The translations under genes were made by a program, and so were the position numbers. Source: Candidatus Methylomirabilota bacterium (GTDB lineage Bacteria; Methylomirabilota; Methylomirabilia; Rokubacteriales; CSP1-6). Taken from it: DNA of 14,330 nt. The stretch lies in contig JBKPAK010000199.1 of NCBI GenBank assembly GCA_046726415.1, forward strand, positions 1-14,330, written 5' to 3'. Positions 1 through 13,378 of this stretch are shown in pieces (the first letter of the stretch is position 1; every line of letters starts with the position of its first letter). Below the pieces are notes generated by a model, which saw only the letters and a list, made by a program, of their open reading frames with translations, was not told the origin of the DNA and searched no databases.

Positions 1-2
1 CG

Positions 3-284
3 CTCTGCGGAGATCGCGTTCGCCTGTCCCTCCGCGTCGACGGCCCGGTGGTGAGGCAGGCGCGGTTCGTGGGAGATGCCTGTGCCATCTGCCTCGCGTC
101 CGCCGACGTGGTCGCCGAATTAGTGGAAGGTCGCACGGTGGTCGAGGCTTCCGCGTTGACGCGGGAGGACGTGCTGGCAGTGCTCCAAGCCGACATTCGG
201 CCGACCCGGATGCGCTGCGTGACCTTGCCCGTCGATGTCCTGGCCAGAGCGCTGGGGAGGGATGGATGCGACTCGACGAGCTGA
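3..284 (+). CDS. SufU/IscU (NifU N-terminal-like) Fe-S cluster assembly scaffold, 5'-truncated by window edge
   Basis: The frame is open from position 3: LCGDRVRLSLRVDG...FVGDACAICLASA...RMRCVTLP. It has the three conserved Cys (CGD, CAI, RC) and overlaps the sufS start. Confidence 0.85.
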   Translation, partial: LCGDRVRLSLRVDGPVVRQARFVGDACAICLASADVVAELVEGRTVVEASALTREDVLAVLQADIRPTRMRCVTLPVDVLARALGRDGCDSTS

Positions 285-1483
285 CCCGCCCGGACTTCCC
301 CATCCTGGAGCGCGTGGTGAACGGCCGGCGCATGGTATACCTCGACTCGGCCGCCTCCAGCCAGAAACCGCGCCCGGTCATCGACGCGATGGTGCGCTAC
401 TACGAGCGAAACCACGCCAACGTGCACAGGTCGATCCATACTCTCGGAGAAGAAGCCACCGAGCTGTACGAACTGGCGCGCGACCGCGTTCAGCAATTCA
501 TCGGCGCGCGGCACCGCGAGGAGGTCATCTTCACGCGGGGGACCACCGACAGCCTGAGTGTCGTGGCCGAGGCCCTCGGACACACGTTGAGGCCGGGCGA
601 CGAGATTGTCATCACTGTCATGGAGCATCACTCCAACATCATCCCTTGGCAGATGGCCGCGCGCGACCGCGGTGCTGTCGTCAAGGCCGTGCCGATCACC
701 ACCGAGGGTCACCTTGACCTCGACACGCTTCGGCGACTGCTGGGGTCGCGGACGCGGGTGGTGGCGGTGGCCCACGTCTCGAACGTGCTGGGCACGGTGA
801 ACCCCGTCCGCGAGATCGCCAGGATGGCCAAGTCGGTGAACGCCGTCTCGGTCGTCGACGGAGCTCAAGCAATTCCTCATCTGTCGACCGATATGGGTGC
901 TCTGGAGTGCGACTTCTATGCCTGGTCATCTCACAAGATGCTCGGGCCGACCGGCATCGGCGTCCTCTACGGTAGACGAGAGATCCTCGAGCGGTTGGAG
1001 CCCACCCGCGGCGGCAGCGAGATGATCAAGGAGGTCTGGATCGACCGCGCGCAGTGGAACGACCTGCCATGGCGGTTCGAGCCAGGGACGCCACCCATCG
1101 CCGAGGCAGTGGGGCTGACGGCGGCCATCGAGTACCTCGAGAAGCTCGGGATGGGGCGCGTCGCGGAGCACGAGCGGGATCTGACGCGGCGGGCTTTGCA
1201 GACCCTGACGGCGATCGAAGGTGTGCGCGTGTTCGGGCCGAGAGAGCCGGACGAGCGTGGCGCCGTGATCGCCTTCAGCGTGGAAGGCCTGCATCCACAC
1301 GATGTCGCCGCGCTCCTCGATGCCCAGGGGATCGCGGTGCGTGCTGGGCATCACTGTGCCCAGCCGCTCATGCGCGCGCTCGGCGTCGTGGGAACCTCGC
1401 GGGCGAGCTTCTCCGTCTATAACTCCCCCGAAGAGGTCGCATTCTTGGCGTCGGCAGTCGAAGGCTTGCGGTCGGCCCTCTAG
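266..1483 (+). CDS. sufS: SufS-family cysteine desulfurase (PLP-dependent)
   Basis: Motifs YLDSAASSQKP, ANVHR, MEHHSN, DGAQ, SSHKMLGPTGIG (PLP lysine), FEPGTP and RAGHHCAQP (group II catalytic Cys); 405 aa. Confidence 0.95.
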   Translation: MRLDELTRPDFPILERVVNGRRMVYLDSAASSQKPRPVIDAMVRYYERNHANVHRSIHTLGEEATELYELARDRVQQFIGARHREEVIFTRGTTDSLSVVAEALGHTLRPGDEIVITVMEHHSNIIPWQMAARDRGAVVKAVPITTEGHLDLDTLRRLLGSRTRVVAVAHVSNVLGTVNPVREIARMAKSVNAVSVVDGAQAIPHLSTDMGALECDFYAWSSHKMLGPTGIGVLYGRREILERLEPTRGGSEMIKEVWIDRAQWNDLPWRFEPGTPPIAEAVGLTAAIEYLEKLGMGRVAEHERDLTRRALQTLTAIEGVRVFGPREPDERGAVIAFSVEGLHPHDVAALLDAQGIAVRAGHHCAQPLMRALGVVGTSRASFSVYNSPEEVAFLASAVEGLRSAL

Positions 1484-1487
1484 GGGC

Positions 1488-2525
1488 ATGTCGGAGGATC
1501 GAGGGGCGCCACGGCCTCCCGGGGAGCCCCCAGTACCGGGGGGCTTGGGGAGCCTGGGCTGGGCCCCCAACCTCGCTAGTGCCGGAATGAGCGAGTGGAG
1601 TCCGCGTGACCCCTTCGTCTCGCCGCGCTTCGGGCAGATCGCCACCTTCATGCTCCTGCCCGTGGCGTCGTCGGTGGAGGGGCTCGACGTGGCCCTCTTT
1701 GGCATTCCCTACGACGGAGGTACCTCGTATCGACCCGGCGCCCGCTTCGGTCCGCGCGCGGTGCGAGAGCAGTCGTCGCTCATCCGATCCTGGCATCCCG
1801 TCCTGAAGATCCACCCCTTCGAGCGCCTGCGCGTGGGGGACTGCGGCGACGTCGACGTGACGCCCATCTCGATCGAGGACACCTATGCGGCCGTGAGCCG
1901 CCGGGTCGACGAGGTGATCGCGGCAGCGGCCACGCCCCTCGGGGTGGGCGGTGACCACTCGGTGACGCTTCCCATCCTGCGCTCGCTGGCCCGGCGCCAC
2001 GGTCCTCTGGGGGTCGTGCATTTCGACGCCCATCCCGACACCTGGGATCAGTATTTTGGTCACAAGTTCTTCCACGGAACGCCCTTCCGGCGGGCGGTGG
2101 AGGAGGGCGTGGTCGAGCCACGGCGCTTCATCCAGGTCGGCATCCGCGGCCCCCTGTACGGCCCGGAGGATTTTGCGTTCCACGCCGAGCACGGAATCGA
2201 GGTCATCCGCATCGAGGCGGTCAAAGAGCGCGGCGTGTCGTGGGTCGCTGGCCAGTTGGCGCGACTGCGGGGCGGCCCCGTCTACTGCTCCTTCGATATC
2301 GATGCCGTGGATCCCGCGTACGCGCCGGGCACGGGCACGCCTGAAGTCGGCGGTCTCACCTCCTACGAGGCCCTCGGCCTCGTGCGCGCGTTGGCGGGTC
2401 TGACCCTGGTGGGTGCCGACATCGTCGAGGTGTCGCCGCTCTTCGACGGTCCCGGTCAGATCACCGCCCTGCTCGCGGCGAATCTCATGTTCGAGTTGGT
2501 CTGTCAGTTCGCGCTGGCTCGATGA
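1488..2525 (+). CDS. speB: Agmatinase / ureohydrolase family protein (start at ATG 1488 or ATG 1587)
   Basis: Motifs GIPYD..TSYRPGARFGPRAVR, GGDHS, HFDAHPD, HGTPF, SFDIDAVDPAYAPGTGTPEVGG and DIVEVSP. The ORF-track start at 1302 lies inside sufS and is unlikely. Substrate within the ureohydrolase family is not established. Confidence 0.88.
   Translation: MSEDRGAPRPPGEPPVPGGLGSLGWAPNLASAGMSEWSPRDPFVSPRFGQIATFMLLPVASSVEGLDVALFGIPYDGGTSYRPGARFGPRAVREQSSLIRSWHPVLKIHPFERLRVGDCGDVDVTPISIEDTYAAVSRRVDEVIAAAATPLGVGGDHSVTLPILRSLARRHGPLGVVHFDAHPDTWDQYFGHKFFHGTPFRRAVEEGVVEPRRFIQVGIRGPLYGPEDFAFHAEHGIEVIRIEAVKERGVSWVAGQLARLRGGPVYCSFDIDAVDPAYAPGTGTPEVGGLTSYEALGLVRALAGLTLVGADIVEVSPLFDGPGQITALLAANLMFELVCQFALAR
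1497..1579. repeat. Structured palindromic element (REP/MITE-like) between sufS and the ureohydrolase domain
   Basis: Two hairpins (1503-1530 and 1545-1570), bounded by GATC (1497-1500) and CTAG (1576-1579). Confidence 0.5.
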
Positions 2526-3850
2526 CGCCGGCACGCCGGCGCGGCGGGAGGCTGGTGGCCCTCCTCCTGATGGCGCTGGGCGGGACCGTTGGAGTGGCGG
2601 CCAGGCCCAGCGAGCGCGGGGCGCGCGTCGATCTCCTCACCATCGACGGCGTCATCAGCCCCGTGACGGTCAGGCTCGTGGAGTCGGCTCTGGACCGAGC
2701 GCGCACCGAGGGTGCGCGGGCCCTCGTCATTCAGCTCGATACCCCGGGCGGGCTCGAGCGGTCGATGCGAACCATCGCGCAACGCATTCTCAACGCTGAG
2801 GTGCCCGTCGTCGTGTACGTGGCACCCACGGGTGCGCGGGCCGCCTCGGCCGGGGTCTTCATCACCTTAGCCGGACACGTCGCCGCGATGGCGCCCGCCA
2901 CCAACATCGGGGCGGCCCATCCGGTGGCGGTGGGGGGCGGCGGGGACAAGGAGAGCCTGAAGAAGATCGAGAACGACGCGGCCGCCTTCATTCGAACCCT
3001 CGCGGTTGAGCGCGGGCGGAACGCGGAGTGGGCGGAGAAGGCGGTCCGGCAGTCCGTCTCCATCACCGAGCGCGAGGCTCTGCGGCTCCGGGTGATCGAC
3101 CTCGTGGCGGATTCCGTGCCCGACCTGCTGGAGAAGATCGACGGGCGGACGGTCAAGATGACGCGGGGACCAGTGAAGCTGGCCACGCGGGCGGCGGTGG
3201 TGGCGCCCTTCGAGATCGGCCTGCGCGATCGCTTCCTCAACGTCATCACCGACCCGAACGTCGCCTACATCCTCATGATGCTCGGCGTGCTCGGTCTCTT
3301 CTTCGAGCTGTCCAATCCTGGTGTGATCGTGCCCGGAGTCATCGGGGGCATCTCGCTCATCCTAGCTTTCTACGCCTTCCAGAGTCTGCCCATCAACTTC
3401 GCCGGCCTGCTCCTGATCCTCCTGGGCATCGTCCTCCTCATCGCGGAGATCAAGGTCGTCAGCCACGGGGTCCTCGCGATTGGCGGAGTCATCGCCATGG
3501 CGCTCGGATCCCTGATGCTCTTCGAGGCGCCCGCGGTGAGCTTCCGGATCTCTTGGTGGCTGCTGGCGGCCTCGGTGGGCCTGGTGGCCGCGGGCTTCCT
3601 CGTCACCATGGCCGCCGGGGCCCGGGCGCTGCGGCGGCCACCCATGCTCGGCGCTCGCGGAATGATTGGCACGACGGGTGTCGCGCGTGGCGCCCTGGCT
3701 CCCGAGGGTCACGTACACGTCGCGGGCGAGCTGTGGCGGGCCGTGGCCGAGGGCGGACCGATTGACGACGGGAGGCCCGTTCGGGTGGTCGGTGTCGAGG
3801 GGCTCACCCTCAAGGTGGTCAAGGTCGAGGACGGCGGAGGGAGCTCATGA
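2522..3850 (+). CDS. nfeD: NfeD-family membrane-bound ClpP-class serine protease
   Basis: Signal peptide, [24 protein letters not shown], multi-TM region and C-terminal OB-fold (GELWRA); ATGA overlap with the downstream SPFH gene. Confidence 0.93.
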
Positions 3851-4683
3851 TCAATCTCGAGTCGCTGTTGTGGGTGGTCGGGATCGGCGTCTTGCTGTTC
3901 TTCATCTCCTCCCTGGCCCGAGTGCTCCGCGAGTACGAGCGCGCGGTCATCTTCCGCCTCGGGCGCAGCGCGCGCGCGATCTTCAATCTCGGCGGGCAGG
4001 GGAACGGGCCGGGCGTCATCTTCTTGCTTCCCCTCATCGACCGCATGGTCAAGGTGAGCCTGCAGACGGTGGCCCTCGACGTGCCGCCGCAGGATGTCAT
4101 CACCCGCGACAACGTGTCGCTCAAGGTCAGCGCGGTGATCTACTTCCGAGTGGTCGATCCGGAGCGCGCGGTGATCGCCGTGCAGGACTATCTCTACGCT
4201 ACCTCGCAGATGTCGCAAACCACGCTCAGAAGCGTGCTCGGTCAGGTCGAGCTGGATGATCTGCTGTCCGCGCGCGACAAGATCAACCAGCAGCTTCAGC
4301 GGATCATCGACGAGCACACCGAACCATGGGGCATCAAGGTCGCCACGGTGGAGGTGAAGCAGATCGACTTGCCTCAGGATATGCAGCGGGCCATGGCCAA
4401 GCAGGCGGAAGCCGAGCGGGAGCGCCGCGCCAAGGTCATCAACGCCGACGGCGAGTTCCAGGCCGCGGCCAAGCTCGCGGAGGCCGCGGAGGTCCTGACC
4501 CGATACCCCGTCTCCATCCAGCTCCGCTTTCTCCAGACGATGCGGGAGATCGCCTCGGAGCGAAGTACGACGACATTCGTCCCGATCCCGGTGGAGCTGT
4601 TCGGGCCACTGCTGAACGCGATGAACGCGGGGAAGGCGCCGGCAAGCTCCCCCGGGCCGACCAGCGCAGCTGGGTCATCGTGA
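3847..4683 (+). CDS. SPFH/band 7 (slipin, stomatin-like) protein
   Basis: Motifs [35 protein letters not shown] and [16 protein letters not shown]; canonical partner of nfeD. Confidence 0.93.
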
Positions 4684-4748: not shown

Positions 4749-4824
4749 GGGGGGTTAGCTCAGTTGGGAGAGCGCGGCGTTCGCAACGCCGAGGTCGAGG
4801 GTTCGAATCCCTTACCCTCCACCA
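4749..4824 (+). tRNA. tRNA-Ala (anticodon CGC)
   Basis: 76-nt cloverleaf: acceptor GGGGGGT/ACCCTCC with the G3:U70 Ala determinant, anticodon arm CGGCG-TTCGCAA-CGCCG, TTCGAAT T-loop and encoded CCA. Confidence 0.97.
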
Positions 4825-5165: not shown

Positions 5166-5307
5166 CGCCCGTGGGCCGATTCCACCGGCCCACCTCGCGG
5201 CCCGATCGCGCTCACATCTCGCGGAGTTGGCGTTGCTGCTCGCTGTCGAAGTGTCGTGGTATCACTTCTGCCTTGTGACCATCGGCGCTGTTCTCGGTGG
5301 AGCTCAC

Positions 5308-5543
5308 GGCATCACCCCGGTGGTGGTCCGCCGCGATCTCGACGCCCGCCTCAAAGCGCGAGTCCGGGCGGTCTTCCTGGAGATGGGAGACAATCCCGGG
5401 GCATCGAGATTCTCAGACAACTCATGATCAAGCGCTTCGTCACCGTGCCCGACACGCTGTTCGACAGCATCCGCGGCATGCTGCGCGTCGTCGACGGCCA
5501 GGCGCCCTCGCTGATCGCCGCGCCGAGGGCGCCGGCGCGCTAG
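5308..5543 (+). pseudogene. C-terminal fragment of a PhnD-type periplasmic oxyanion-binding protein (AioX/ArxX/ArrT-like), frameshifted
   Basis: GITPVVVRRDLDARLKARVRAVFLEMGDNP joins GIEILRQLMIKRFVTVPDTLFDSIRGM across a 1-nt deletion near 5398; directly upstream of a sensor kinase fragment. Confidence 0.6.
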
Positions 5544-5545
5544 CC

Positions 5546-6158
5546 GTGGGTGCCGTTCGCCCCTTCCGGGAATGGCGGCTCGGCGCCAAGCTGGCTGCGA
5601 CATTCCTCGTCGTCGTCACCGCCGTCGCCGCGCTGGTGAGCTTCTCAGTGATTACCCATGGTCGGCTCGCCCTTGACGAGGAGCTGCGCAAGCGCGGGGT
5701 GAACCTGGTGGAAAAGCGTGACCCGGCTCAGCGTCGACCTCGTCTTGCAGGACGACCTGTGGGGCCCCTACAAGGTCGTGCGCGACATCGCGAACGGGTC
5801 GGGCGACGCCGAGAACGTCGTGGTCTATGCCACGGTTCTGGATCCGCAGGGCCGCGTTCTGGCGCATTCCGATCCCGCGCGACATCCCATGGGTGAGCGC
5901 CTGGATCTCACCGATCAGCCGTCGATTCCGACAAGGGCCGTCGTCCTGTCCGCGCTTCGCGGACGGGAGGGCGAGCATCTCTACGACGTCGCGGCCCCGA
6001 TCGTGCTCGACAACCGCCACATCGGCGTGGCGCGGGTGGGGATCACGACATGCCATCTCGAAGCGACCGTGGCGAGGATGACGCGGAACTTGCTGCTGAT
6101 CAGCTCGCTGCTCGGCGCCTTCGGGGTTGGCCTGGGTCTGGTCATCTCGCGCCGGATG
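5546..6158 (+). pseudogene. N-terminal half of a sensor histidine kinase (TM-Cache-TM; AioS/ArxS-like), frameshifted and truncated
   Basis: TM1 KLAATFLVVVTAVAALVSFSVI, an extra A at about 5712-5715, periplasmic QDDLWGPYKVV...VLDPQGRVLAHSDP...YDVAAPI...IGVARVG, then TM2. It breaks at ISRRM, before the HAMP and kinase domains. Confidence 0.7.
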
Positions 6159-6226
6159 GTCTCGACGTTGGACCCGGTGCGCTTCGACAGGGCCCCGATG
6201 GCGAGGCGAGCTGAGGCGGTGTCCAT
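6152..6226 (-). pseudogene. N-terminal 25-codon stub of a MerR-family regulator
   Basis: MDTASARLAIGALSKRTGSNVETIR matches the start of the MerR HTH (xIGxLSxxTGxxVETIRYYE). It has a GGAGGG RBS and is divergent from a MerR-type promoter. Confidence 0.8.
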
Positions 6227-6254
6227 GCCACCCTCCCGGGCGCTGAGAATTCGC

Positions 6255-6285
6255 TTGAGTCTGTAGTTACTACAGGCTTTAGCGT
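6255..6285 (+). promoter_or_regulatory. MerR-family (MerR/CadR/PbrR-type) promoter-operator
   Basis: TTGAGT (6255-6260), 19 bp spacer, TAGCGT (6280-6285), with a perfect dyad CTGTAGT-T-ACTACAG (6261-6275) in the spacer. Confidence 0.85.
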
Positions 6286-6326
6286 CATGCCACATGAAGT
6301 CATCGCTATCGTGGAGGTGAGGTCCG

Positions 6327-6991
6327 GTGGAACTCGAGATCAAGACCGCCGAAGAATTGGTTGACCCTGACCTGGAGGCCCGATGGGTCGCTCGTCGAGA
6401 GGCTCGCCTGACGGACGTCCTCCAGGCCATCTTGCGAGCGTTTCGCGATCGGGGCGGTCCGGTGCCCGTGGAAGAGATTTCCGTCGCCCTCCCGGAGCGC
6501 ACGCCTGGAATCGTCCGGGAGACGCTGGTTGCGCTGGACAAGGAGGACCTGATCCAGCTCGCTGAAGGCCGCGTGGAGATCGCGTATCCGTTCTCCGCGG
6601 CCCCGACGCCGTTCATCGCGCGATTCACTGACGGGGCAGAGCGATATGCGTGCTGCGCGATTGACGCGCTCGGAATCGCCCGATGCTGGCTGAGCCGATC
6701 CACATCCTCTCGCAGTGCCACCACTGCCAGGCGCACCTGGCGCTGGAGGTGAGGCCTCACGGGGTGGGCCCAGGATCGGAGGAGATCATGGTGTGGGTAG
6801 GGAACCGCGCTGAGGGCCCGTGCCGGCTCGCCACCTCGTTCTGCACGACGCTGAACTTCTTCCGGTCGGGAGAGCATCTGCGGGGGTGGCGAGCAGTGAA
6901 TCCGGATGTGCCGGGAGCCGGCGCGACGGTGGCCGAGGCATTCAAGCTGGGACGACGGATCTTCGGAGGGCTCCTCCAGGGAGGGTACTGA
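6327..6991 (+). pseudogene. merB: Alkylmercury lyase (MerB)-family protein, about 221 aa, split by a 1-nt deletion near 6680
   Basis: RBS GGAGGTGA; N-terminal HTH region, [20 protein letters not shown] (CxxD), SQCHHC and [12 protein letters not shown]. Adding one C at 6678-6681 joins ORFs 6327..6752 and 6683..6991. Confidence 0.75.
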
Positions 6992-7230
6992 TGACCGGCC
7001 GACAGGTGACGGTGTATTGGTCGTCGACCTGACAGTCGTGTCACGCGGCGAAAGAGTTCCTTTCGTCTCATGGGGTGGCATTCAGCGCGAAGAACGTGGC
7101 CGAGGACGCCGGGGCGCGTGAGGAGCTGATCTCGAAGACGGGGCGGATGGCTGTTCCGGTCATCACCGTCGACGAGCAGGTGATCGTGGGGTTCGACGGA
7201 GGTCACCTGCAGCGGCTCCTGGGCATCTGA
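6991..7230 (+). CDS. Glutaredoxin/NrdH-like protein, predicted selenoprotein (UxxC; TGA at 7030-7032)
   Basis: MTGRQVTVYWSST-U-QSCHAAKEFLSSHGVAFSAKNVAEDAGAREELISKTGRMAVPVITVDEQVIVGFDGGHLQRLLGI (79 aa). The Grx fold continues in frame after the TGA. TGATG coupling to the merB-like stop; hairpin at 7047-7067. Confidence 0.85.
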
Positions 7231-7232
7231 CG

Positions 7233-7886
7233 ATGACGAAGGTTCGCTGTCCAGATTGCAGCGAGATGGTCGAGCTTCCTCAGAGTGTCCGGTCGGGCGA
7301 CCTGGTGGAATGCCCGAACTGCGCAGGCCACGTTCTCAGGGTCAGGGAAGTGAGGGACGCATGGGGCGCGACGCTTGCCCATCGCGTGAGCTGCCCGGAC
7401 TGCGAGGGGTTGCTGACCCTGCCCGAAGGGACCAAGGCGGGTGACCTGATCGAGTGCTGTGGCTGGCGCTACCGGCTCACCTTCGAGTACGGGGCGTTCG
7501 CCGCGGAGCCGTTGGAGGAGGCACCATGTGGCGTGATCGCTGGTTCGCTCTCGGCGCGGGTGCCGCCGCGTGGGCGGGGGCCCTGCTCTCATCGCTCTGC
7601 TGCCTGTTGCCGCTGGCCGTCATCGTCCTCGGACTCGGCAGCGGCGCCTTCATGGCCGTCACCATGCAGTACCGGTGGATCTGATCCCGTCGGGCGTGCT
7701 GGGTGTCGGCGCTGGCTTCTGGCTCTACGCACGCGAGCGCCGGCGATGCGACCGGCTCGGATGCCGCATGGCCGGAAGCCGGCTCACGCTCGCGCTCCTC
7801 GTCCTGGCCGGCCTCGTGGTGGCAACCTCGATCATCCTCGATCGTTTCCCCGAGATGACGTCCGATCTCGTGAGCCGTCTCATTGA
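7233..7886 (+). CDS. Tandem zinc-ribbon (LysW-like fold) Cys-rich protein; only the first ~97 codons look genuine
   Basis: Two repeats, VRCPDC...GDLVECPNC and VSCPDC...GDLIECC. The remainder overlaps merT, and the frame would stop at 7684 if the merT frameshift is corrected. Confidence 0.6.
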   Translation: MTKVRCPDCSEMVELPQSVRSGDLVECPNCAGHVLRVREVRDAWGATLAHRVSCPDCEGLLTLPEGTKAGDLIECCGWRYRLTFEYGAFAAEPLEEAPCGVIAGSLSARVPPRGRGPCSHRSAACCRWPSSSSDSAAAPSWPSPCSTGGSDPVGRAGCRRWLLALRTRAPAMRPARMPHGRKPAHARAPRPGRPRGGNLDHPRSFPRDDVRSREPSH

Positions 7887-7941
7887 CACCTCGGCGCCCT
7901 CCGGACACGAGATGCATCGGCCACAGAAGGGTTCGCTATGA
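7526..7941 (+). pseudogene. merT: MerT-family mercuric ion transporter, about 138 aa, 1-nt deletion at about 7681
   Basis: RBS GGAGGAGG; SSLCCLLPL (vicinal Cys in TM1), YRWI(L)IP, cytoplasmic CDRLGC and three TM helices. Adding one C restores the frame. Confidence 0.75.
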
Positions 7942-8230
7942 AGCGCGACGCTCTCTGGTTCGCACTCCTGCTGCTCCTGCTGGTGGCCCATACCGCGTCA
8001 GCGGCCCCGACGACGGCGGTCCTTACGGTGGAGGGCATGGCCTGAGGCACCTGACCGGTAGCGGTCAAGCGGGCCCTGGAAGGGCTCAAGGGCGTGAGCG
8101 GGGCGGCGGTGAGCCTCGGCAGAAGGAAGCACGGGTGACGTTCGACTCGGCACAGGTCACCGTGGACGACCTGATCGCCGCGGTCAATGGTCTGGGGTTC
8201 CGCGCGTCGGTCAAGCGCCAGGAACAGTAG
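7938..8230 (+). CDS. Secreted MerP/CopZ-like HMA-domain protein, predicted double selenoprotein (GMA-U-GT-U), with a 1-nt deletion at about 8118
   Basis: Signal peptide MKRDALWFALLLLLLVAHTASA, then LTVEGMA-TGA(8043)-GT-TGA(8052)-PVAVKRALEGLKGV, and after the shift QKEARVTFDSAQVTVDDLIAAVNGLGFRASV. ATGA overlap with the merT stop. Confidence 0.82.
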
Positions 8231-8422
8231 ACAGCCGCATACTGGCTGCGGGCCCTCTGCCAGTCTAGACGGCTACGACCAATCCGTCACCCGCGCACTC
8301 TTGCGGCACCGCACCGACAGGCGCGAGCCTTCGGAGGAATAGCGCGGGCGCGGAGGGTAGATCCCTGGACGACTGGATCAGCATCGGGATGGTTCCCGAT
8401 CTGGCGGGTTCTCGGGCTCGAC

Positions 8423-8451
8423 TTGACTACCGTTCCATAATTTCATACTCT
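8423..8451 (+). promoter_or_regulatory. Promoter of the arsR operon, probably a leaderless transcript
   Basis: TTGACT (8423-8428), 17 bp spacer, TACTCT (8446-8451), 7 nt before ATG 8459; AT-rich patch and no RBS. Confidence 0.6.
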
Positions 8452-8458
8452 TCGAAGC

Positions 8459-8767
8459 ATGAAGACGATCGCACGTCTGCCGCTCGGGCAGTTGGCCGCC
8501 AACGACAACCACGTCGAGGCCTTCAAAGCGCTCGCGCATCTCAGCCGCCTTCAGATCTTCTTCGTCCTTGTGAAGGTGGGACGAGAGATGTCAGTCGGAG
8601 AGATCCAGGAAGCCGTCGAGATCCCTGGAGCCACCCTGTCCCATCACCTCGATCTCCTGCGACGGGCCGGGCTCGTCGAGAGCCGGAAGGAAGAGCGGCA
8701 CATCTACTACTCGGTGCAGCGGGAGCGAGTCACCACCCTGGTGCGTTTGCTCACCGCGTGCTGCTAA
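8459..8767 (+). CDS. arsR: ArsR/SmtB-family repressor with C-terminal vicinal Cys pair
   Basis: FKALAHLSRLQIF, ATLSHHLDLLRRAGLV and terminal LTACC (C-terminal As(III)-site type); first gene of an ars cluster. Confidence 0.85.
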   Translation: MKTIARLPLGQLAANDNHVEAFKALAHLSRLQIFFVLVKVGREMSVGEIQEAVEIPGATLSHHLDLLRRAGLVESRKEERHIYYSVQRERVTTLVRLLTACC

Positions 8768-9306: not shown

Positions 9307-9729
9307 GAGTTCCTGACGGGCGAAATCGAGGCTACCCCGCGGCCGAACAACTCGGTGGACGTGACCATTTTCCAACTGCGTCATCAACCTGTCTGCCGAC
9401 AAAGACCGCGTGTTCGCCGAGTCGTTCCGAGGGCTCAGACCAGATGGCCGATTCGCTGTTTCGGATGTCGTCGTCCGGGGCGAGGTGCCCGCGACGATCC
9501 GCCGTAGCGTCGAGCCGTGGATCAGATGCGCAGCCGGCGCGCTGGAGCAGTCGGAGTACCGCGAGAAATTGGCGAAGGGCGGATTCGAGGCTGTCGAGAT
9601 CGAGCCAACTCGGATCTACCGCACGGAGGATGCGCAAGAGTTCCTGGATCGCGAGGGTATCGAAGCGACCGCCATCGCGCCGGCCGTGGACGGGAACTTC
9701 AGAGCGTGTTCGTACGGGCACGCAAGCCG
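9307..9729 (+). pseudogene. arsM: Arsenite methyltransferase C-terminal fragment
   Basis: EFLTGEIEA..P.NSVDV / SNCVINLSADKDRV..E.FR.LRP.GRFAVSDVV...W..C.AGAL...IEPTRIY / SVFVRARKP. The N-terminus is missing and there are frameshifts near 9368 and 9701. Confidence 0.85.
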
Positions 9730-9926
9730 CGCAGCGGGCGACGAGGGAGCCGACGAGCACCGAGCTGGATTCGTTCGCGCTTCTCATCGCCCCAGGCGCT
9801 GGATGTGGGACTACGGCTACCCGTGGTCGGCCGGTACGTCGACGGATCGCTTGGCCCCATCATTCTGGGCGGCCGGTGTGCTGGGCCTAGGTCCGTGCGT
9901 TGCAGGGTCGCTAGGGTTTAGACGCC

Positions 9927-10472
9927 GTGACCGACCACGGTGTCGTTGTCCTCGGCATCCCGATCCCATCCTCCTCACCGATTTTCCTCAGCATTGTAGC
10001 GGGACATGTGGCTGCGGGACTCGTGTGCACCATCGCCGGGATCGCCGCGCGCTCCATGTGGAGCCCCAAACGCGCCGGTCGCCATCCGGCGGCTGGCGCC
10101 GTCTACTACTGGAGTCTCGTGGTGGTCTTCTTGTCTATGGCCGCCCTCTCTATCATGCGGTGGCCAGAGAACACGCACCTCTTCGCGCTCGGCATTCTGT
10201 TATTCGGCGCTGGAACGATCGGACGAACGGCGAGACGGCGGCTCTGGCACCCCTGGCTCCGACTGCACATCGCCGGCATGGGAATCTCATACATCCTGCT
10301 GCTCACCGCGTTCTACGTGGACAATGGACCGCACCTGCCGCTGTGGCGTTCGCTGCCGCCTCTGGCGCATTGGCTCCTGCCCAGCCTCGTCGGCGTTCCT
10401 CTTCTGGTCTGGGCACTGAGACGTCACTCGCTCACTCGGCAGTCCCGCGCGCTTCGACAACCCTCCGCGTGA
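9927..10472 (+). CDS. Multi-pass membrane protein, DUF2306-like
   Basis: HVAAG...KRAGRHP..G..YYW, HIAGMGISYILLLTAFYVDNG; several hydrophobic segments; GTG start. Confidence 0.65.
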   Translation: MTDHGVVVLGIPIPSSSPIFLSIVAGHVAAGLVCTIAGIAARSMWSPKRAGRHPAAGAVYYWSLVVVFLSMAALSIMRWPENTHLFALGILLFGAGTIGRTARRRLWHPWLRLHIAGMGISYILLLTAFYVDNGPHLPLWRSLPPLAHWLLPSLVGVPLLVWALRRHSLTRQSRALRQPSA

Positions 10473-10516
10473 AAACCGACGAGGGGGTGAAGGCTTCTGA
10501 CGAGCGAGACCGTGTT

Positions 10517-10687
10517 ATGCGATTGCTTCCGTTTCACTTCGGCTGGATGGTCCTCATAGCTGGGGGAATCGGAGCGTTTATGACCCTACCGGGCCAGACG
10601 ACCGGCGTCGCTGTATTCTTCGATCCGCTTGCCGCTGATCTCAACCTCACACGCACTCAGATCGCCCTGGCCTACACGGTCGGAACG
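10517..10687 (+). pseudogene. N-terminal fragment of an MFS transporter
   Basis: PFHFGWMVL...PGQTTGVAVFFDPLAADLNLTRTQIALAYTVGT; similarity then stops abruptly. Confidence 0.65.
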
Positions 10688-10937
10688 TTCGAGCGGAGAA
10701 GGCGGAGGCAGCCGCTCGCTTTGAGGCTCAGCAGGCTCAACTCGACGAGCTGCGGGCGCAGGTGCGCGCGCTCATCGGTGGAAGAGCGGCCATCAGAGAA
10801 TGAGCGACCGGTCGCTGCTCACCACGGCTCTGGTCGCTGCGCAGTTTCCGGAGAATGTTGCCCGAGTCGCGTGGCTCCACGCCTGGGCGGTCCGGGCCTA
10901 CGCGGCGCTGGAGGATCGTGTGAGGTATGACAGTCGG

Positions 10938-11630
10938 TCAGTCACCCGTCGGCGAGATGCGAAACTCCACGATCGCGGCCCGTTCCCGCAGCGTCTCGGC
11001 CAGGCGCCGCATGTTGTCCCAGTGGTTGGTGCGGATGATCATGCGGTACTCGAAGAAGCGCCCGTCGCCGCTCACGCGGTAGCTCATGTTGGCGATCGAG
11101 AACGAATGCGACGAGATCAGGTGTCGAACATCGACCTCGGACATCGTGTTGTCTCGCGCGAACTTCATGTGGTGGTGCGCGTAGATCTGGCTCGGCAAGG
11201 CCTGCTCAATCCATCGGAACGCGGACAGCGTGCCCAGGACCAGCAGGGTGCCCGCCGCGGCGGCCAGGTAGAAGCCGACCCCTGTAAGGATACCGATGGC
11301 CGCGGTGGTCCAGATCGAGGCCGCGGTGGTGAGTCCACGTACAGAGAGGCCTTCCTTGAAGATCACGCCGGCCCCGAGAAACCCGATGCCCGTCATGATG
11401 CCCTGGGCCATCCGCGTCGGATCGGTGCGCACCGTCTCCAGCGGTATCCCCGGCAGCCATTTCCACTGGTAGAGCGTGACGAGCATGAGGAGGCTGGACG
11501 CGACGCACACCAGCGTATGTGTCCTGAACCCGGCCGGGCGACCGTGGAAGCTGCGCTCGAGTCCGATGCAGCCTCCGGCGAGCGCGGCACTGAACAGATG
11601 ACCAAGGATTGGGCCAAGATCCCCCAGCAT
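10938..11630 (-). CDS. MgtC/SapB family protein
   Basis: IGLERSFHGRPAGFRTHTLV, DPTRMAQGIMTGIGFLGAGVI, GLTTAASIW and an ACT-like C-terminus; RBS AAGGGAG. Confidence 0.92.
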   Translation of the reverse strand: MLGDLGPILGHLFSAALAGGCIGLERSFHGRPAGFRTHTLVCVASSLLMLVTLYQWKWLPGIPLETVRTDPTRMAQGIMTGIGFLGAGVIFKEGLSVRGLTTAASIWTTAAIGILTGVGFYLAAAAGTLLVLGTLSAFRWIEQALPSQIYAHHHMKFARDNTMSEVDVRHLISSHSFSIANMSYRVSGDGRFFEYRMIIRTNHWDNMRRLAETLRERAAIVEFRISPTGD

Positions 11631-11908
11631 GCGCAGTCTCCCTTAGCCTCTGTGACCTTGACGCGGAGAATAGCAGAGCTGCACCTTTCGGAGGGGCGAA
11701 GCGCTCGGGCCGCGTCTCGGCTACCATCGCGGGCATCCCTGACCAACCAGAGCCGACGGCACCCGACAGCCCCGCTTCCGACCGAGACGCGCCCCAGTGG
11801 TTTCTTCCCGCCCTGGCGATCGCCTCACTCGGCGATGACGTTCCGGAGCGCCGCATGCTGACCGCCTGGCTCGATTCCTGGTCCGGCGCGCGTAAGGTGA
11901 TCGACGCG

Positions 11909-12685
11909 ATGAAGGTCAGCTTGCTCGCGTTCGCCCTAAGGGGATGCGTCACCTCACACCAAGTTGCGGTGACGCTCCCGAAGCCGGCGACGCTGATAGC
12001 GGAACTGTACACACCGAAAGGGCCGGGCCCTTTCCCCGCCCTCGTCCTCCTCCACGGCTGTGGCGGGGTCGGGTCAGTCATCGTCGCCTGGGCACAATGG
12101 CTCCGCGCCGAGGGCTACGCGGCGCTCATCCTCGACAGCTTCGGCGGCCGAGGCATCAGCCGCCTCTGCGGGGACTCGTCCCCGCTTCGCGGCCAACCGC
12201 GATCACCCGACGTTTACGCCGCCGCCACCTATCTGGCGACGCTACCCATGATCGACCGCAACCGTATCGGCGCGATGGGCTGGTCGCACGGCGGCTGGAC
12301 CGTGCTCTGGGCGGGCAACACCGAAGGACGGTATCCCGACGCCAAGCTTCGCGCCCTGATCGCCTTCTATCCCGTCTGCGTTGACCTCGTCGCATACGGC
12401 GGCGACACGCCGCTTCTCATGCTCCTCGGCGAACTCGATGACTGGACCCCACCCGAGGCATGCCAGACCGTGGCGCTCGGCGCCCGTCGGGCCGGTCGCG
12501 ACGTCGCCGACGTCCTCTATCCTGGCGCCCACCACGGGTTCGACGCAGCTCACCTGCCGAAGCCGGTTCGGATCGCGGATGCACGTGGCGGTCGTGGCGC
12601 GACGGTCGCCTACAGCCCGAGCGCTCACGCCGACGCGGAGAAGCGCGTGCGCGAGTTCCTAGCGCGGTATCTGAGACCGAATTGA
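11909..12685 (+). CDS. Dienelactone hydrolase family alpha/beta hydrolase
   Basis: GPFPALVLLHGCGG, GWSHGG nucleophile elbow, GELDDWTP, YPGAHHGFD. The likely start is ATG 11909, not 11609. Confidence 0.85.
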   Translation: MKVSLLAFALRGCVTSHQVAVTLPKPATLIAELYTPKGPGPFPALVLLHGCGGVGSVIVAWAQWLRAEGYAALILDSFGGRGISRLCGDSSPLRGQPRSPDVYAAATYLATLPMIDRNRIGAMGWSHGGWTVLWAGNTEGRYPDAKLRALIAFYPVCVDLVAYGGDTPLLMLLGELDDWTPPEACQTVALGARRAGRDVADVLYPGAHHGFDAAHLPKPVRIADARGGRGATVAYSPSAHADAEKRVREFLARYLRPN

Positions 12686-12797
12686 TGGGACATTTCTACC
12701 TCGCGAGGTCGCCGAGTACATCGGCGCGCGATCCGTGAGGGAAGAACACGCCCGGCGTCGTGGCCGAGATTCTGGCGGACGAAATGCGTCGAGGCCG

Positions 12798-13378
12798 ATG
12801 AAGTCTGATATCGACCACGAGGAATGTGAGGAGCTCCCGCTTTCACCGGCGGCAGAGTACCTCCTAGAGGAATGCCGGATGGTGCTGCCTGGGATCCAGG
12901 CGCTCTTCGGATTCCAGCTGATCGCGGTGTTCAATCAGGGATTTGGCGAGAAGCTCACCCTCGGGGAGCAGCGTCTCCACATCGTAGCGATCAGCATGGC
13001 CGTGGTGGCCAATCGCACTCATCATGACGCCTGCGGCACTGCACCGCAGACCGGCTCCGGAAAGTGAGCGCGACGTTTATCCGGGTGTCTAGTGCCCTGC
13101 GGCTGTCGAGCATGTTGCCGCTGGCGGTAAGTATTTGCACGGACGTCTACCTGATCGCACGCATCATTCTTGGCAGCATGACGGCCGCCGTGGTGGCCTC
13201 AGCGCTCCTCGCGTTCTTTATCATCCTGTGGTTTGTCGCTCCGGGTGTGCGAGGTCTTCAGAGGATCCTCGCTGCTGCCTCTCGAAGAGCTGTGGATCCT
13301 CCGCGCGTGGACGGCACTGCAGCAGGTGAATTGAGTGACCGCACCGAGCACCGGCGGAGCAACCGTGAGCGGCGGTGA
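12798..13378 (+). pseudogene. DUF6328-like membrane protein, multiply frameshifted
   Basis: LLEECRMVLPGIQALFGFQLIAVFN / IALIMTPAALHR / VSATFIRVSS...LWFVAP; frameshifts near 13011, 13047 and 13062. Confidence 0.65.

Follow-up and report, generated by a model that had tools for sequence, protein, structure and literature searches.

A decaying, probably non-functional copy of a putative selenocysteine-dependent mer-like cluster in a Rokuibacteriota genome

The stretch of DNA analysed in this work (hereafter the window, 14,330 nt) is one entire contig (JBKPAK010000199.1, C199) of a 352-contig, 7.6-Mb Rokuibacteriota genome, for which completeness and contamination were 98% and 4.66%, respectively. 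Behind a MerR-type promoter it carries five co-oriented genes, which encode a MerB-like lyase, a glutaredoxin-like protein, a tandem zinc ribbon, a MerT-like membrane protein and a MerP-like protein (merB, grx, the zinc-ribbon gene, merT and merP). We consider it likely that this gene set is a decaying, probably non-functional paralogue of an intact, selenocysteine (Sec)-using cluster of the Rokuibacteriota that handles a soft metal, likely mercury. Judged from the sequences, the cluster is common in this soil phylum and has predicted Sec at metal-binding sites; because these residues are encoded by TGA, gene callers cut the proteins short. The parts are of known kinds; neither the MerB clade nor the operon seems to have been described before.

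Results

Composition and conservation of the cluster

The features of the window are listed in Table 1. A first-pass annotation, made from the letters of the window alone, had described the promoter, the five co-oriented genes, their junctions and three in-frame TGA codons, and all of these were recovered at the same positions. The stop codon of merB overlaps the start of grx (TGATG, 6989-6993), the stop of grx (7228-7230) is separated by a 2-nt gap (7231-7232) from the ATG of the zinc-ribbon gene at 7233, and the stop of merT overlaps the start of merP (ATGA, 7938-7941).

Table 1. Features of the window; the cluster and its control region are followed by the surrounding genes
Feature	Positions	Strand	Basis or remark
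merR remnant	6152..6226	-	tblastn with the MerR of paralogue C156: residues 1-25, 88% identity
MerR-type divergent promoter/operator (predicted)	6255..6285	+	read from the sequence
merB-like lyase gene	6327..6991	+	PF03243 on both halves, 22.5 and 62.9 bits
Glutaredoxin-like selenoprotein gene (predicted), 79 codons	6991..7230	+	PF00462, 62.5 bits
Tandem LysW-like zinc-ribbon gene	7233..7514	+	PF21344, 36.9 bits (gathering 27), 2 stretches
MerT-like membrane protein gene	7526..7941	+	weak PF02411 match, 17.8 bits
MerP-like HMA selenoprotein gene (predicted); signal peptide, predicted periplasmic	7938..8230	+	NF041115 on both halves, 51.9 and 33.7 bits
Class-V aminotransferase, arginase family, NfeD and SPFH/Band 7 genes	1-4683		look intact; left of tRNA-Ala
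tRNA-Ala (CGC) gene	4749-4824	+	
Sensor gene remnant	5297-6266	+	sCache_3_2 domain and one transmembrane helix; without HAMP or kinase part
DUF6328 gene in two ORFs	12735-13378	+	profile 14-64 in 12735-13067, 85-142 in 13064-13378

The occurrence of the cluster was determined in a comparison set of 201 genomes of the phylum, with the lyase of the host's own C156 paralogue (see below) as query; places and loci outside the host genome are called non-own. The lyase was present in 91 of the 201 genomes, and an in-frame TGA was found in 81 of 99 non-own places. The phylum-wide tallies include five unpublished genomes, G101 (locus L036), G058, G151, G047 and G029, and L036 contributes a row to alignments A1 and A3 and is included in the promoter alignment and the tree. 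The conclusions are independent of these genomes; the public record L048 yields rows identical to those of L036.

Twenty-nine non-own loci were fetched, each with about 1.5 kb of flank. The full order merR<>merB-grx-zinc ribbon-(merF)-merT-merP was present in seven of them (L018, L019, L020, L029, L032, L038 and L045), and the gene set was rearranged in L024 and L034. MerF is a frequent member of the intact cluster. The gene for the glutaredoxin-like protein directly followed that of the lyase in 16 of the 29 loci, and the zinc ribbon was present in 14. Conservation of gene order elsewhere in the Rokuibacteriota, which the first-pass annotation had expected, was thus borne out.

Besides the window copy, the merR-promoter module occurs three more times in the host genome, and the point of truncation differs from copy to copy. 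The paralogue at C156:85560-88060 keeps the same promoter and an intact merR in divergent orientation, together with an unbroken merB with the TGA, grx with the same TGA as in the window, the ribbon gene, merF and merT; it is without merP, and its merT has a foreign tail. The stump at C294:6324-7236 consists of merR and 92 lyase codons, and that at C318:1448-2060 of merR and about 9 codons.

No MerA above the cut-off was found in the host (best score 349.2, cut-off 454.45) or in any of the five operon-bearing relatives, each at least 91% complete, in agreement with the earlier claim that merA is missing. In a genome of another family (G045) the ribbon gene is directly followed by a gene for a flavoprotein disulfide reductase (L053:4174-5583, minus strand), which has an in-frame TGA in its redox motif, C-L-G-R-G-U (CxxxxU). 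The best NCBIfam scores of this reductase were 352.6 with MerA and 349.2 with lipoamide dehydrogenase, both below the cut-offs, and no orthologue was found in the host. Separately, a MerA/disulfide-reductase-like gene of the host genome (G000:C87:15122-16485) was matched as four consecutive pieces in differing frames and is multiply frameshifted.

Among the neighbours of the cluster in relatives are an integrase (L051) and a Mu-transposase fragment (L049), and in the window the cluster lies 1.4 kb beyond the tRNA-Ala gene. These neighbours suggest that the cluster may be mobile.

In-frame TGA codons and the hairpins behind them

All three TGA codons of the window fall on motif cysteines of Pfam and NCBIfam models and of homologues, and the reading frames stay open and conserved past every one of them. 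The TGA of grx (7030-7032, codon 14, motif U-Q-S-C) was found in 69 of 71 non-own places and in all 20 rows of the relatives' alignment; the remaining two places are partial matches that begin after residue 14. In merP the TGAs at 8043-8045 and 8052-8054 are codons 36 and 39 of the gene and lie in the motif U-G-T-U, and UxxU was seen in 10 of 10 rows. The UxxU protein model NF041115 scored above its cut-off in 12 of the 201 genomes, in 11 with two TGAs and in one with a single TGA. An intact homologue from L019, P0147, which contains UxxU, scored 113.6 with this model (cut-off 95); no intact UxxU merP was found in the host genome. Alternation of TGA with Cys codons at the same columns, another expectation of the first-pass annotation, was present among the homologues of the lyase and of the zinc ribbon.

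The host has the machinery for Sec incorporation. The genes selA (591.9 bits), selB (374.2) and selD (335.6) and the tRNA-Sec gene (71) were all found above the cut-offs; selA, selB and the tRNA-Sec gene lie together on host contig C313, and the selD gene itself carries a TGA. None of the observations that the first-pass annotation had named as damaging to its proposal was therefore made: the homologues are not uniformly Cys forms, the genes for Sec incorporation are present and the gene order is conserved.

Hairpins resembling selenocysteine insertion sequences (SECIS) follow the TGA codons at a distance of 13-16 nt, and their loops contain G and U. The hairpin of grx (7047-7067) has 8 bp and the loop AGUUC (AGUUY in relatives) and begins 16 nt past the TGA. 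Over 18 sequences 98.6% of the cells were paired, with one compensatory pair (CG->AU), and the pairing was above that of all slid controls. In merP the hairpin (8071-8087, GGGCCC-UGGAA-GGGCUC) begins 16 nt past the second TGA; it was 96% paired over 9 sequences, also with one compensatory pair. The 6-bp hairpin of the Sec-type merB, UCUUCC-GGUC-GGAAGA, begins 13 nt past the TGA described in the following section. It was the same in each of the 29 Sec forms, even at five synonymous third positions in a row that have variable ones on either side, and altered in the Cys form L046. In Rfam (E<=1) the window matched a tRNA only and no SECIS family.

Given the Sec machinery of the host, the interchange of TGA and Cys codons among homologues and the conserved hairpins downstream, the three in-frame TGAs are predicted to be decoded as Sec. 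General recoding of TGA was considered and rejected, because merB, grx and merT of the window also have TGA as their true stop codon.

The MerB-like lyase

The intact lyase of the C156 paralogue matched PF03243 over the whole profile (1-126 of 126) with 109.2 bits and passed the Pfam gathering score. In the phmmer alignment to the Protein Data Bank (PDB) MerB mutant chain 3f2g_A, the sole plasmid-type MerB for which an alignment was printed (chain 1s6l_A appeared in the hit table only), C106, D109 and U169 fell on the MerB triad, the residues of which we take to be numbered C96, D99 and C159; the Cys and the Asp lie in the motif C-A-I-D. The column equivalent to Cys159 was TGA in 29 of the 30 fetched loci, within the motif S-L-U-T-T-L-N-F-F, and TGT in L046. 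Because this TGA column coincides with a catalytic cysteine, the MerB-family lyase is normally a predicted fourth selenoprotein of the cluster, with a putative Cys-Asp-Sec active site. The earlier count of three Sec codons holds for the window, but it missed this fourth site.

In the window the codon is TGC (6842-6844) and the motif S-F-C-T-T. Behind it, at 6858-6873, a relic of the SECIS-like hairpin is preserved with one A->G change. An intact 221-aa Cys lyase of the window type, P0012, occurs on 12 contigs of the protein collection, and in a midpoint-rooted maximum-likelihood tree it grouped with two Sec forms, those of the host C156 copy and of a genome of the same genus (support 100/99). 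The simplest reading is that the window lyase arose by replacement of Sec by Cys within a Sec clade.

Among the matches listed (120 of 759), most database homologues of the lyase were 171-172 aa long and cut at the UGA, as the first-pass annotation had anticipated for standard gene callers; such truncated entries are named 'alkylmercury lyase' or 'hypothetical protein'. In G033 a second, distant MerB-like paralogue (L028:787-1149, minus strand; 27% identity, Cys form, without hairpin) lies between the Sec-lyase and grx genes.

Glutaredoxin-like protein, zinc ribbon and membrane components

The glutaredoxin gene is the only cluster member in the window that looks intact in sequence. Its product scored 83.2 with the YruB model TIGR02196 (cut-off 88.55) and 55.9 with UXX-star (cut-off 66).

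The zinc ribbon has eight invariant cysteines in the alignment, arranged as CPDC..CPNC and CPxC..CC. The AlphaFold model had a pLDDT of 91.7, and its best PDB match was LysW chain 3vpb_E (probability 1.00, E 7.9e-3); with the LysW carrier model NF041070 the protein remained below the cut-off (52.4, cut-off 75). The C-terminus has a strongly conserved tail, F-E-Y-G-A-F-A-A-E (alignment A4); LysW carrier proteins likewise end in a conserved acidic tail. In four genomes (L018/L047, L037, L034 and L024) TGA takes the place of one to three CxxC cysteines in the ribbon, and Cys was found elsewhere, which makes the ribbon itself a candidate selenoprotein in some genomes. In G070 the ribbon and MerT form a single ORF of 248 residues by in-frame fusion (L049:7255-7998, plus strand), suggesting that the ribbon acts at the cytoplasmic face of MerT. 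Near this fusion lie a second MerR gene, a gene for a PCYCGC protein and a C-terminal fragment of a Mu transposase.

The MerT-like protein has a CC pair in the first transmembrane helix (SSLCCLLP) and a C-x4-C loop, and its likeness to MerT is limited to this pair and the cytoplasmic Cys pair. The MerT models were not passed, the scores being 17.8 and 18.8 with PF02411 (cut-off 32.9) and 24.9 with NF010314 (cut-off 150). The other mer equivalog models gave a comparable picture. In the MerB tests (NF009710/NF033555) P0009 scored 60.5 against a cut-off of 193 and 54.1 against 200, and P0012 67.2 against 193; with the MerP model TIGR02052 P0147 reached 73.6 (cut-off 92.55) and the N-terminal half of the window protein 42.9; and the C156 MerR reached 125.7 with TIGR02051 (cut-off 150.85). 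The same MerR also scored on CueR (115.4) and on CadR/PbrR (110.3). The MerF of the C156 paralogue was above its cut-off (NF033565, 52.9, cut-off 50).

Promoter and regulator

At 6255-6285 a -35 box (TTGAGT, 6255-6260) and a -10 box (TAGCGT, 6280-6285) are separated by a spacer of 19 nt (6261-6279), which contains the dyad CTGTAGT-T-ACTACAG (6261-6275). With a spacer in the 19-20 nt range, a dyad and an adjoining divergent merR, the region has the sequence features of promoters controlled by the MerR family, and it is a predicted MerR-type operator. In an alignment of 17 distinct merR-merB intergenic regions the motif was kept in 16, L039 being the exception. A scan of 6100-8500 for sigma-70 promoters and terminators found nothing; as the scan permits spacers of 16-18 nt only, its silence on this promoter is explained by the 19-nt spacer.

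The MerR paralogues on C156, C294 and C318 are intact and have 173 aa. Cysteines are at positions 84, 119 and 127 of MerR, a spacing that we take to be much like that of the Hg-binding cysteines of Tn21/Tn501 MerR. In the window only the first 25 or so codons of merR are left (6226->6152). Similarity to the intact paralogues ends at about 6152, where the remnant is joined, in antisense orientation, to the 5' part of a truncated sCache sensor ORF (5718-6266, plus strand).

Decay of the window copy

Comparison with paralogue and homologue DNA revealed three single-base deletions in the cluster: one in merB, in the C-run at 6678-6680 (against paralogue/homologue DNA), one in merT at about 7680 (TGGAT-CTGATC; against four homologue DNAs) and one in merP at about 8118 (against homologue DNA). 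In the zinc-ribbon gene the stop codon was lost by a substitution, GAG standing where C156 has TAG, and as a result the ORF continues out of frame to 7886. A plot of GC content at third codon positions along the window was too noisy to locate the frameshifts.

Logan contigs from four soil-metagenome runs were placed on 5900-8400. The merT and merP deletions were present in the X1 and X2 contigs with 0 gaps, and that of merT also in record 28 of X4; the frameshifts in these two genes of the window lie in the DNA itself. At the merR junction the X1 and X2 contigs cover 5900-6181 without a difference and thus extend 29 bases beyond it, slightly short of the 31 bases that our bridging rule demands. 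The first-pass annotation had suggested that this copy may be partly inactivated by frameshifts. Frameshifts there are, but with merR cut to about 25 codons and the stop of the ribbon gene lost, the copy is more decayed than that wording implied.

Surroundings of the cluster

To the right of the tRNA-Ala gene many genes are truncated or split, as at the insertion site of a genomic island. In the sensor remnant another frameshift is suggested by the overlap of ORFs 5297-5896 and 5718-6266; the split DUF6328 gene is a further likely one, and comparable cases may be present where ORFs 9410-10930, 10800-11861 and 11609-12685 overlap.

Discussion

Relation to known systems

With canonical mer operons (Tn21/Tn501-type merR-merTPCAD and the broad-spectrum type with merB) the Rokuibacteriota cluster shares the divergent MerR, the 19-nt promoter spacer with its dyad operator, a MerP-type HMA protein that is exported, MerT/MerF-type proteins with CC pairs and a MerB-fold lyase with the Cys96/Asp99/Cys159 triad. 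It differs in having predicted Sec at the MerB 159 position and at both MerP ligands, in the addition of a Sec-glutaredoxin and a tandem zinc ribbon, in the absence of a detectable MerA from cluster and genome, and in that its proteins are below all mer equivalog cut-offs.

A published parallel is SaoL, which belongs to the SAO (Selenocysteine-Assisted Organometallic) locus and is described in the available text of a preprint as a MerB-like selenoprotein that carries Sec where MerB has Cys159; the same text gives SAO as exclusive to anaerobes, mostly Firmicutes (bioRxiv 10.1101/2022.07.06.499078). As far as that text describes SaoL, the two have in common the MerB family, Sec in place of the Cys159 equivalent, database entries truncated at UGA and metal-binding selenoproteins as neighbours. 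The SaoL model NF040728 (cut-off 140) was, however, not passed by the C156 lyase (61.0), P0012 (54.3) or the N-terminal half of the window lyase (33.8), and SaoL has a CU dipeptide where the Rokuibacteriota lyase has L-U or F-C. The nine-gene SAO neighbourhood contrasts with MerR, Grx, zinc ribbon, MerT and MerP here, and, as far as the preprint text goes, anaerobic hosts contrast with Rokuibacteriota from soil and groundwater samples. NCBIfam scans of the operon partners found no Sao family besides the weak SaoL matches; the wider flanks were scanned with Pfam only.

The first-pass annotation overlooked that the UxxU MerP is of a known kind. The UxxU HMA protein is already curated as NF041115 (UxxU_metal_bind, 'metal-binding (seleno)protein') and is listed in the available text of two reviews as 'putative mercuric reductase, UxxU' (PMC13188914, PMC9312934), the window merP being a frameshifted and P0147 an intact member. 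Selenoproteins resembling MerP, MerT and MerB are likewise in the literature: the consulted portions of these reviews list a MerT-like selenoprotein and SaoL besides the UxxU protein (PMC9312934, PMC13188914), and MerP-like and MerT-like Sec proteins appear in a 2008 list from marine metagenomes, according to the text available (PMC2398784). In the review passages at hand NF041115 stands without operon context, whereas here its gene closes a cluster under MerR control (PMC13188914, PMC9312934). The Sec glutaredoxin-like families (YruB, TIGR02196; UXX-star, NF041212 and NF041114) share with the window protein the small thioredoxin fold and Sec as the first residue of UxxC; the window protein differs by scoring below the YruB and UXX-star cut-offs and by its fixed place beside the lyase in a mer-like operon. 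A literature search, which left supplements aside, returned no description of the Rokuibacteriota operon or of a MerB clade with Sec other than SaoL; Haft and Tolstoy 2025 (mSystems) and Deng et al. 2026 (Cell Rep) may bear on novelty.

Alternative explanations

That the in-frame TGAs are ordinary stops and the genes short or dead is hardly credible. It is how the public gene calls read them, ending the MerB-like proteins after 171-172 aa, but it leaves unexplained why the frames stay open and conserved past every TGA, why TGA alternates with Cys at identical columns and why conserved hairpins follow in a host with complete Sec machinery; nor can it appeal to a general loss of stop function, as merB, grx and merT of the window all terminate at TGA. 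The hairpin evidence has weak sides of its own. Covariation is thin, with one compensatory pair each in grx and merP and none in merB, and although the expected stems formed, the single-sequence fold z-scores were unremarkable (-1.08, -1.62 and -0.64), so that fold energy is by itself no evidence; it is in their conservation among relatives that the hairpins of the first-pass annotation were upheld. Scarcely more attractive, and very improbable in our judgement, is the idea that the window copy is intact and functional and that the frameshifts and the merR truncation are sequencing or assembly errors or programmed frameshifts. All three deletions could sit in short runs of the same base, and that of merB is absent from X1, the only run contig covering 6678, which has an extra C and an open frame, as well as from P0012, which is found intact on 12 contigs; this lesion is therefore uncorroborated and may be an error of assembly or peculiar to a strain. 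By contrast, the deletions in merT and merP recur without gaps in the separately built X1 and X2 contigs (for merT also in X4 record 28), these two contigs cover the junction that truncates merR, the ribbon stop was lost by substitution and not by an indel, the homologues need no frameshift, and three further copies of the module in the same host are truncated as well. The independence of X1 and X2 is uncertain, as one run may be the source sample, and no RNA runs containing the stretch were listed; these points, like the merB lesion and the modest hairpin statistics, weigh against our interpretation of the window as a decaying copy of a Sec cluster.

A more substantial challenge concerns the substrate. 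The cluster family may be real and Sec-using and yet serve a purpose other than mercury handling, such as the handling of another soft metal (Cu(I), Ag, Au or Cd) or the metabolic processing of an organometal or organometalloid. We regard this as unlikely but far from negligible, and retain it because every mer-specific equivalog model (MerB, MerP, MerT and MerR) remained below its cut-off. The C156 MerR fits CueR and CadR/PbrR nearly as well as MerR, no MerA was found, and the import of a toxic metal without MerA would be an awkward design. Moreover, 13 of the 29 non-own loci have the Sec-MerB without the other cluster genes and in metabolic-looking contexts; in L054 and L055, for instance, the solitary Sec-lyase lies beside ABC-transporter, MetE-like and oxidoreductase genes, and in the G136 locus (L050) DUF1326 and a gene for a PpoB2 copper chaperone are close by. 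A parallel proposal for the Sec-rich SAO system was made by Haft and Gwadz, as far as the accessible text of their preprint goes (bioRxiv 10.1101/2022.07.06.499078). Against a substrate other than mercury stand the exact retention of the MerB catalytic triad, the C156 MerF, which passes its own cut-off, and the combination of a MerT-type CC pair, an exported MerP-type HMA protein and a MerR operator with a 19-nt spacer, which is the classic mercury kit. The spacing of Cys 84, 119 and 127 in MerR, which presumably matches the Hg ligands of Tn21/Tn501 MerR, points the same way.

A possible selenol relay

Mercury thus remains the favoured substrate on sequence grounds, and selenolates bind Hg more tightly than thiolates. 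In the mechanism that we envisage, the periplasmic diselenolate of MerP would capture the soft metal, for which Hg(II) or an organomercurial is the most likely candidate, and the cysteine pairs of MerT/MerF would pass it inward. The Sec-MerB, with its Cys-Asp-Sec site, would cleave the metal-carbon bond. The selenol/thiol of the glutaredoxin-like protein together with the Cys-rich zinc ribbon would then strip the tightly bound metal, which would be sequestered or handed on and not reduced by a canonical MerA; we infer that the Sec-glutaredoxin and the Cys-rich protein may replace or assist MerA. The biochemical roles assigned here to the cluster proteins follow from their families and motifs and are to be taken as putative.

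In its broadest form the proposal is that of a widespread, MerR-controlled and MerA-free pathway for organomercurials or soft metals in the Rokuibacteriota, in which a selenol relay would run from MerP through MerT/MerF to Sec-MerB and on to the Sec-glutaredoxin and a (seleno)Cys-rich ribbon, with a CxxxxU reductase added in one lineage. We put this forward tentatively, and give it somewhat less than an even chance.

Biological significance

The chief value of the window copy is as a record of decay, in which a replacement of Sec by Cys has left the SECIS relic in place and a redundant paralogue has been lost piecemeal. The wider pathway, if true, would mean that the biological antagonism of Hg and Se is encoded by an operon, one that the databases miss, with hundreds of entries cut at UGA. 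Soil surveys of mer genes mis-score the lyases, because most of the listed homologue entries end at the UGA and go under the name 'alkylmercury lyase' or 'hypothetical protein'. The cluster would account for part of the very large selenoproteomes of the Methylomirabilota/Rokuibacteriota, of which the available text of one review gives a Methylomirabilota metagenome-assembled genome with 63 predicted selenoprotein genes as an example (PMC13188914). Textbook mercury resistance is a thiol relay ending in MerA, and a conserved Sec variant without MerA would change this picture; it would offer a case of selenium-mercury chemistry that is genetically tractable, in a soil phylum that is abundant and uncultured.

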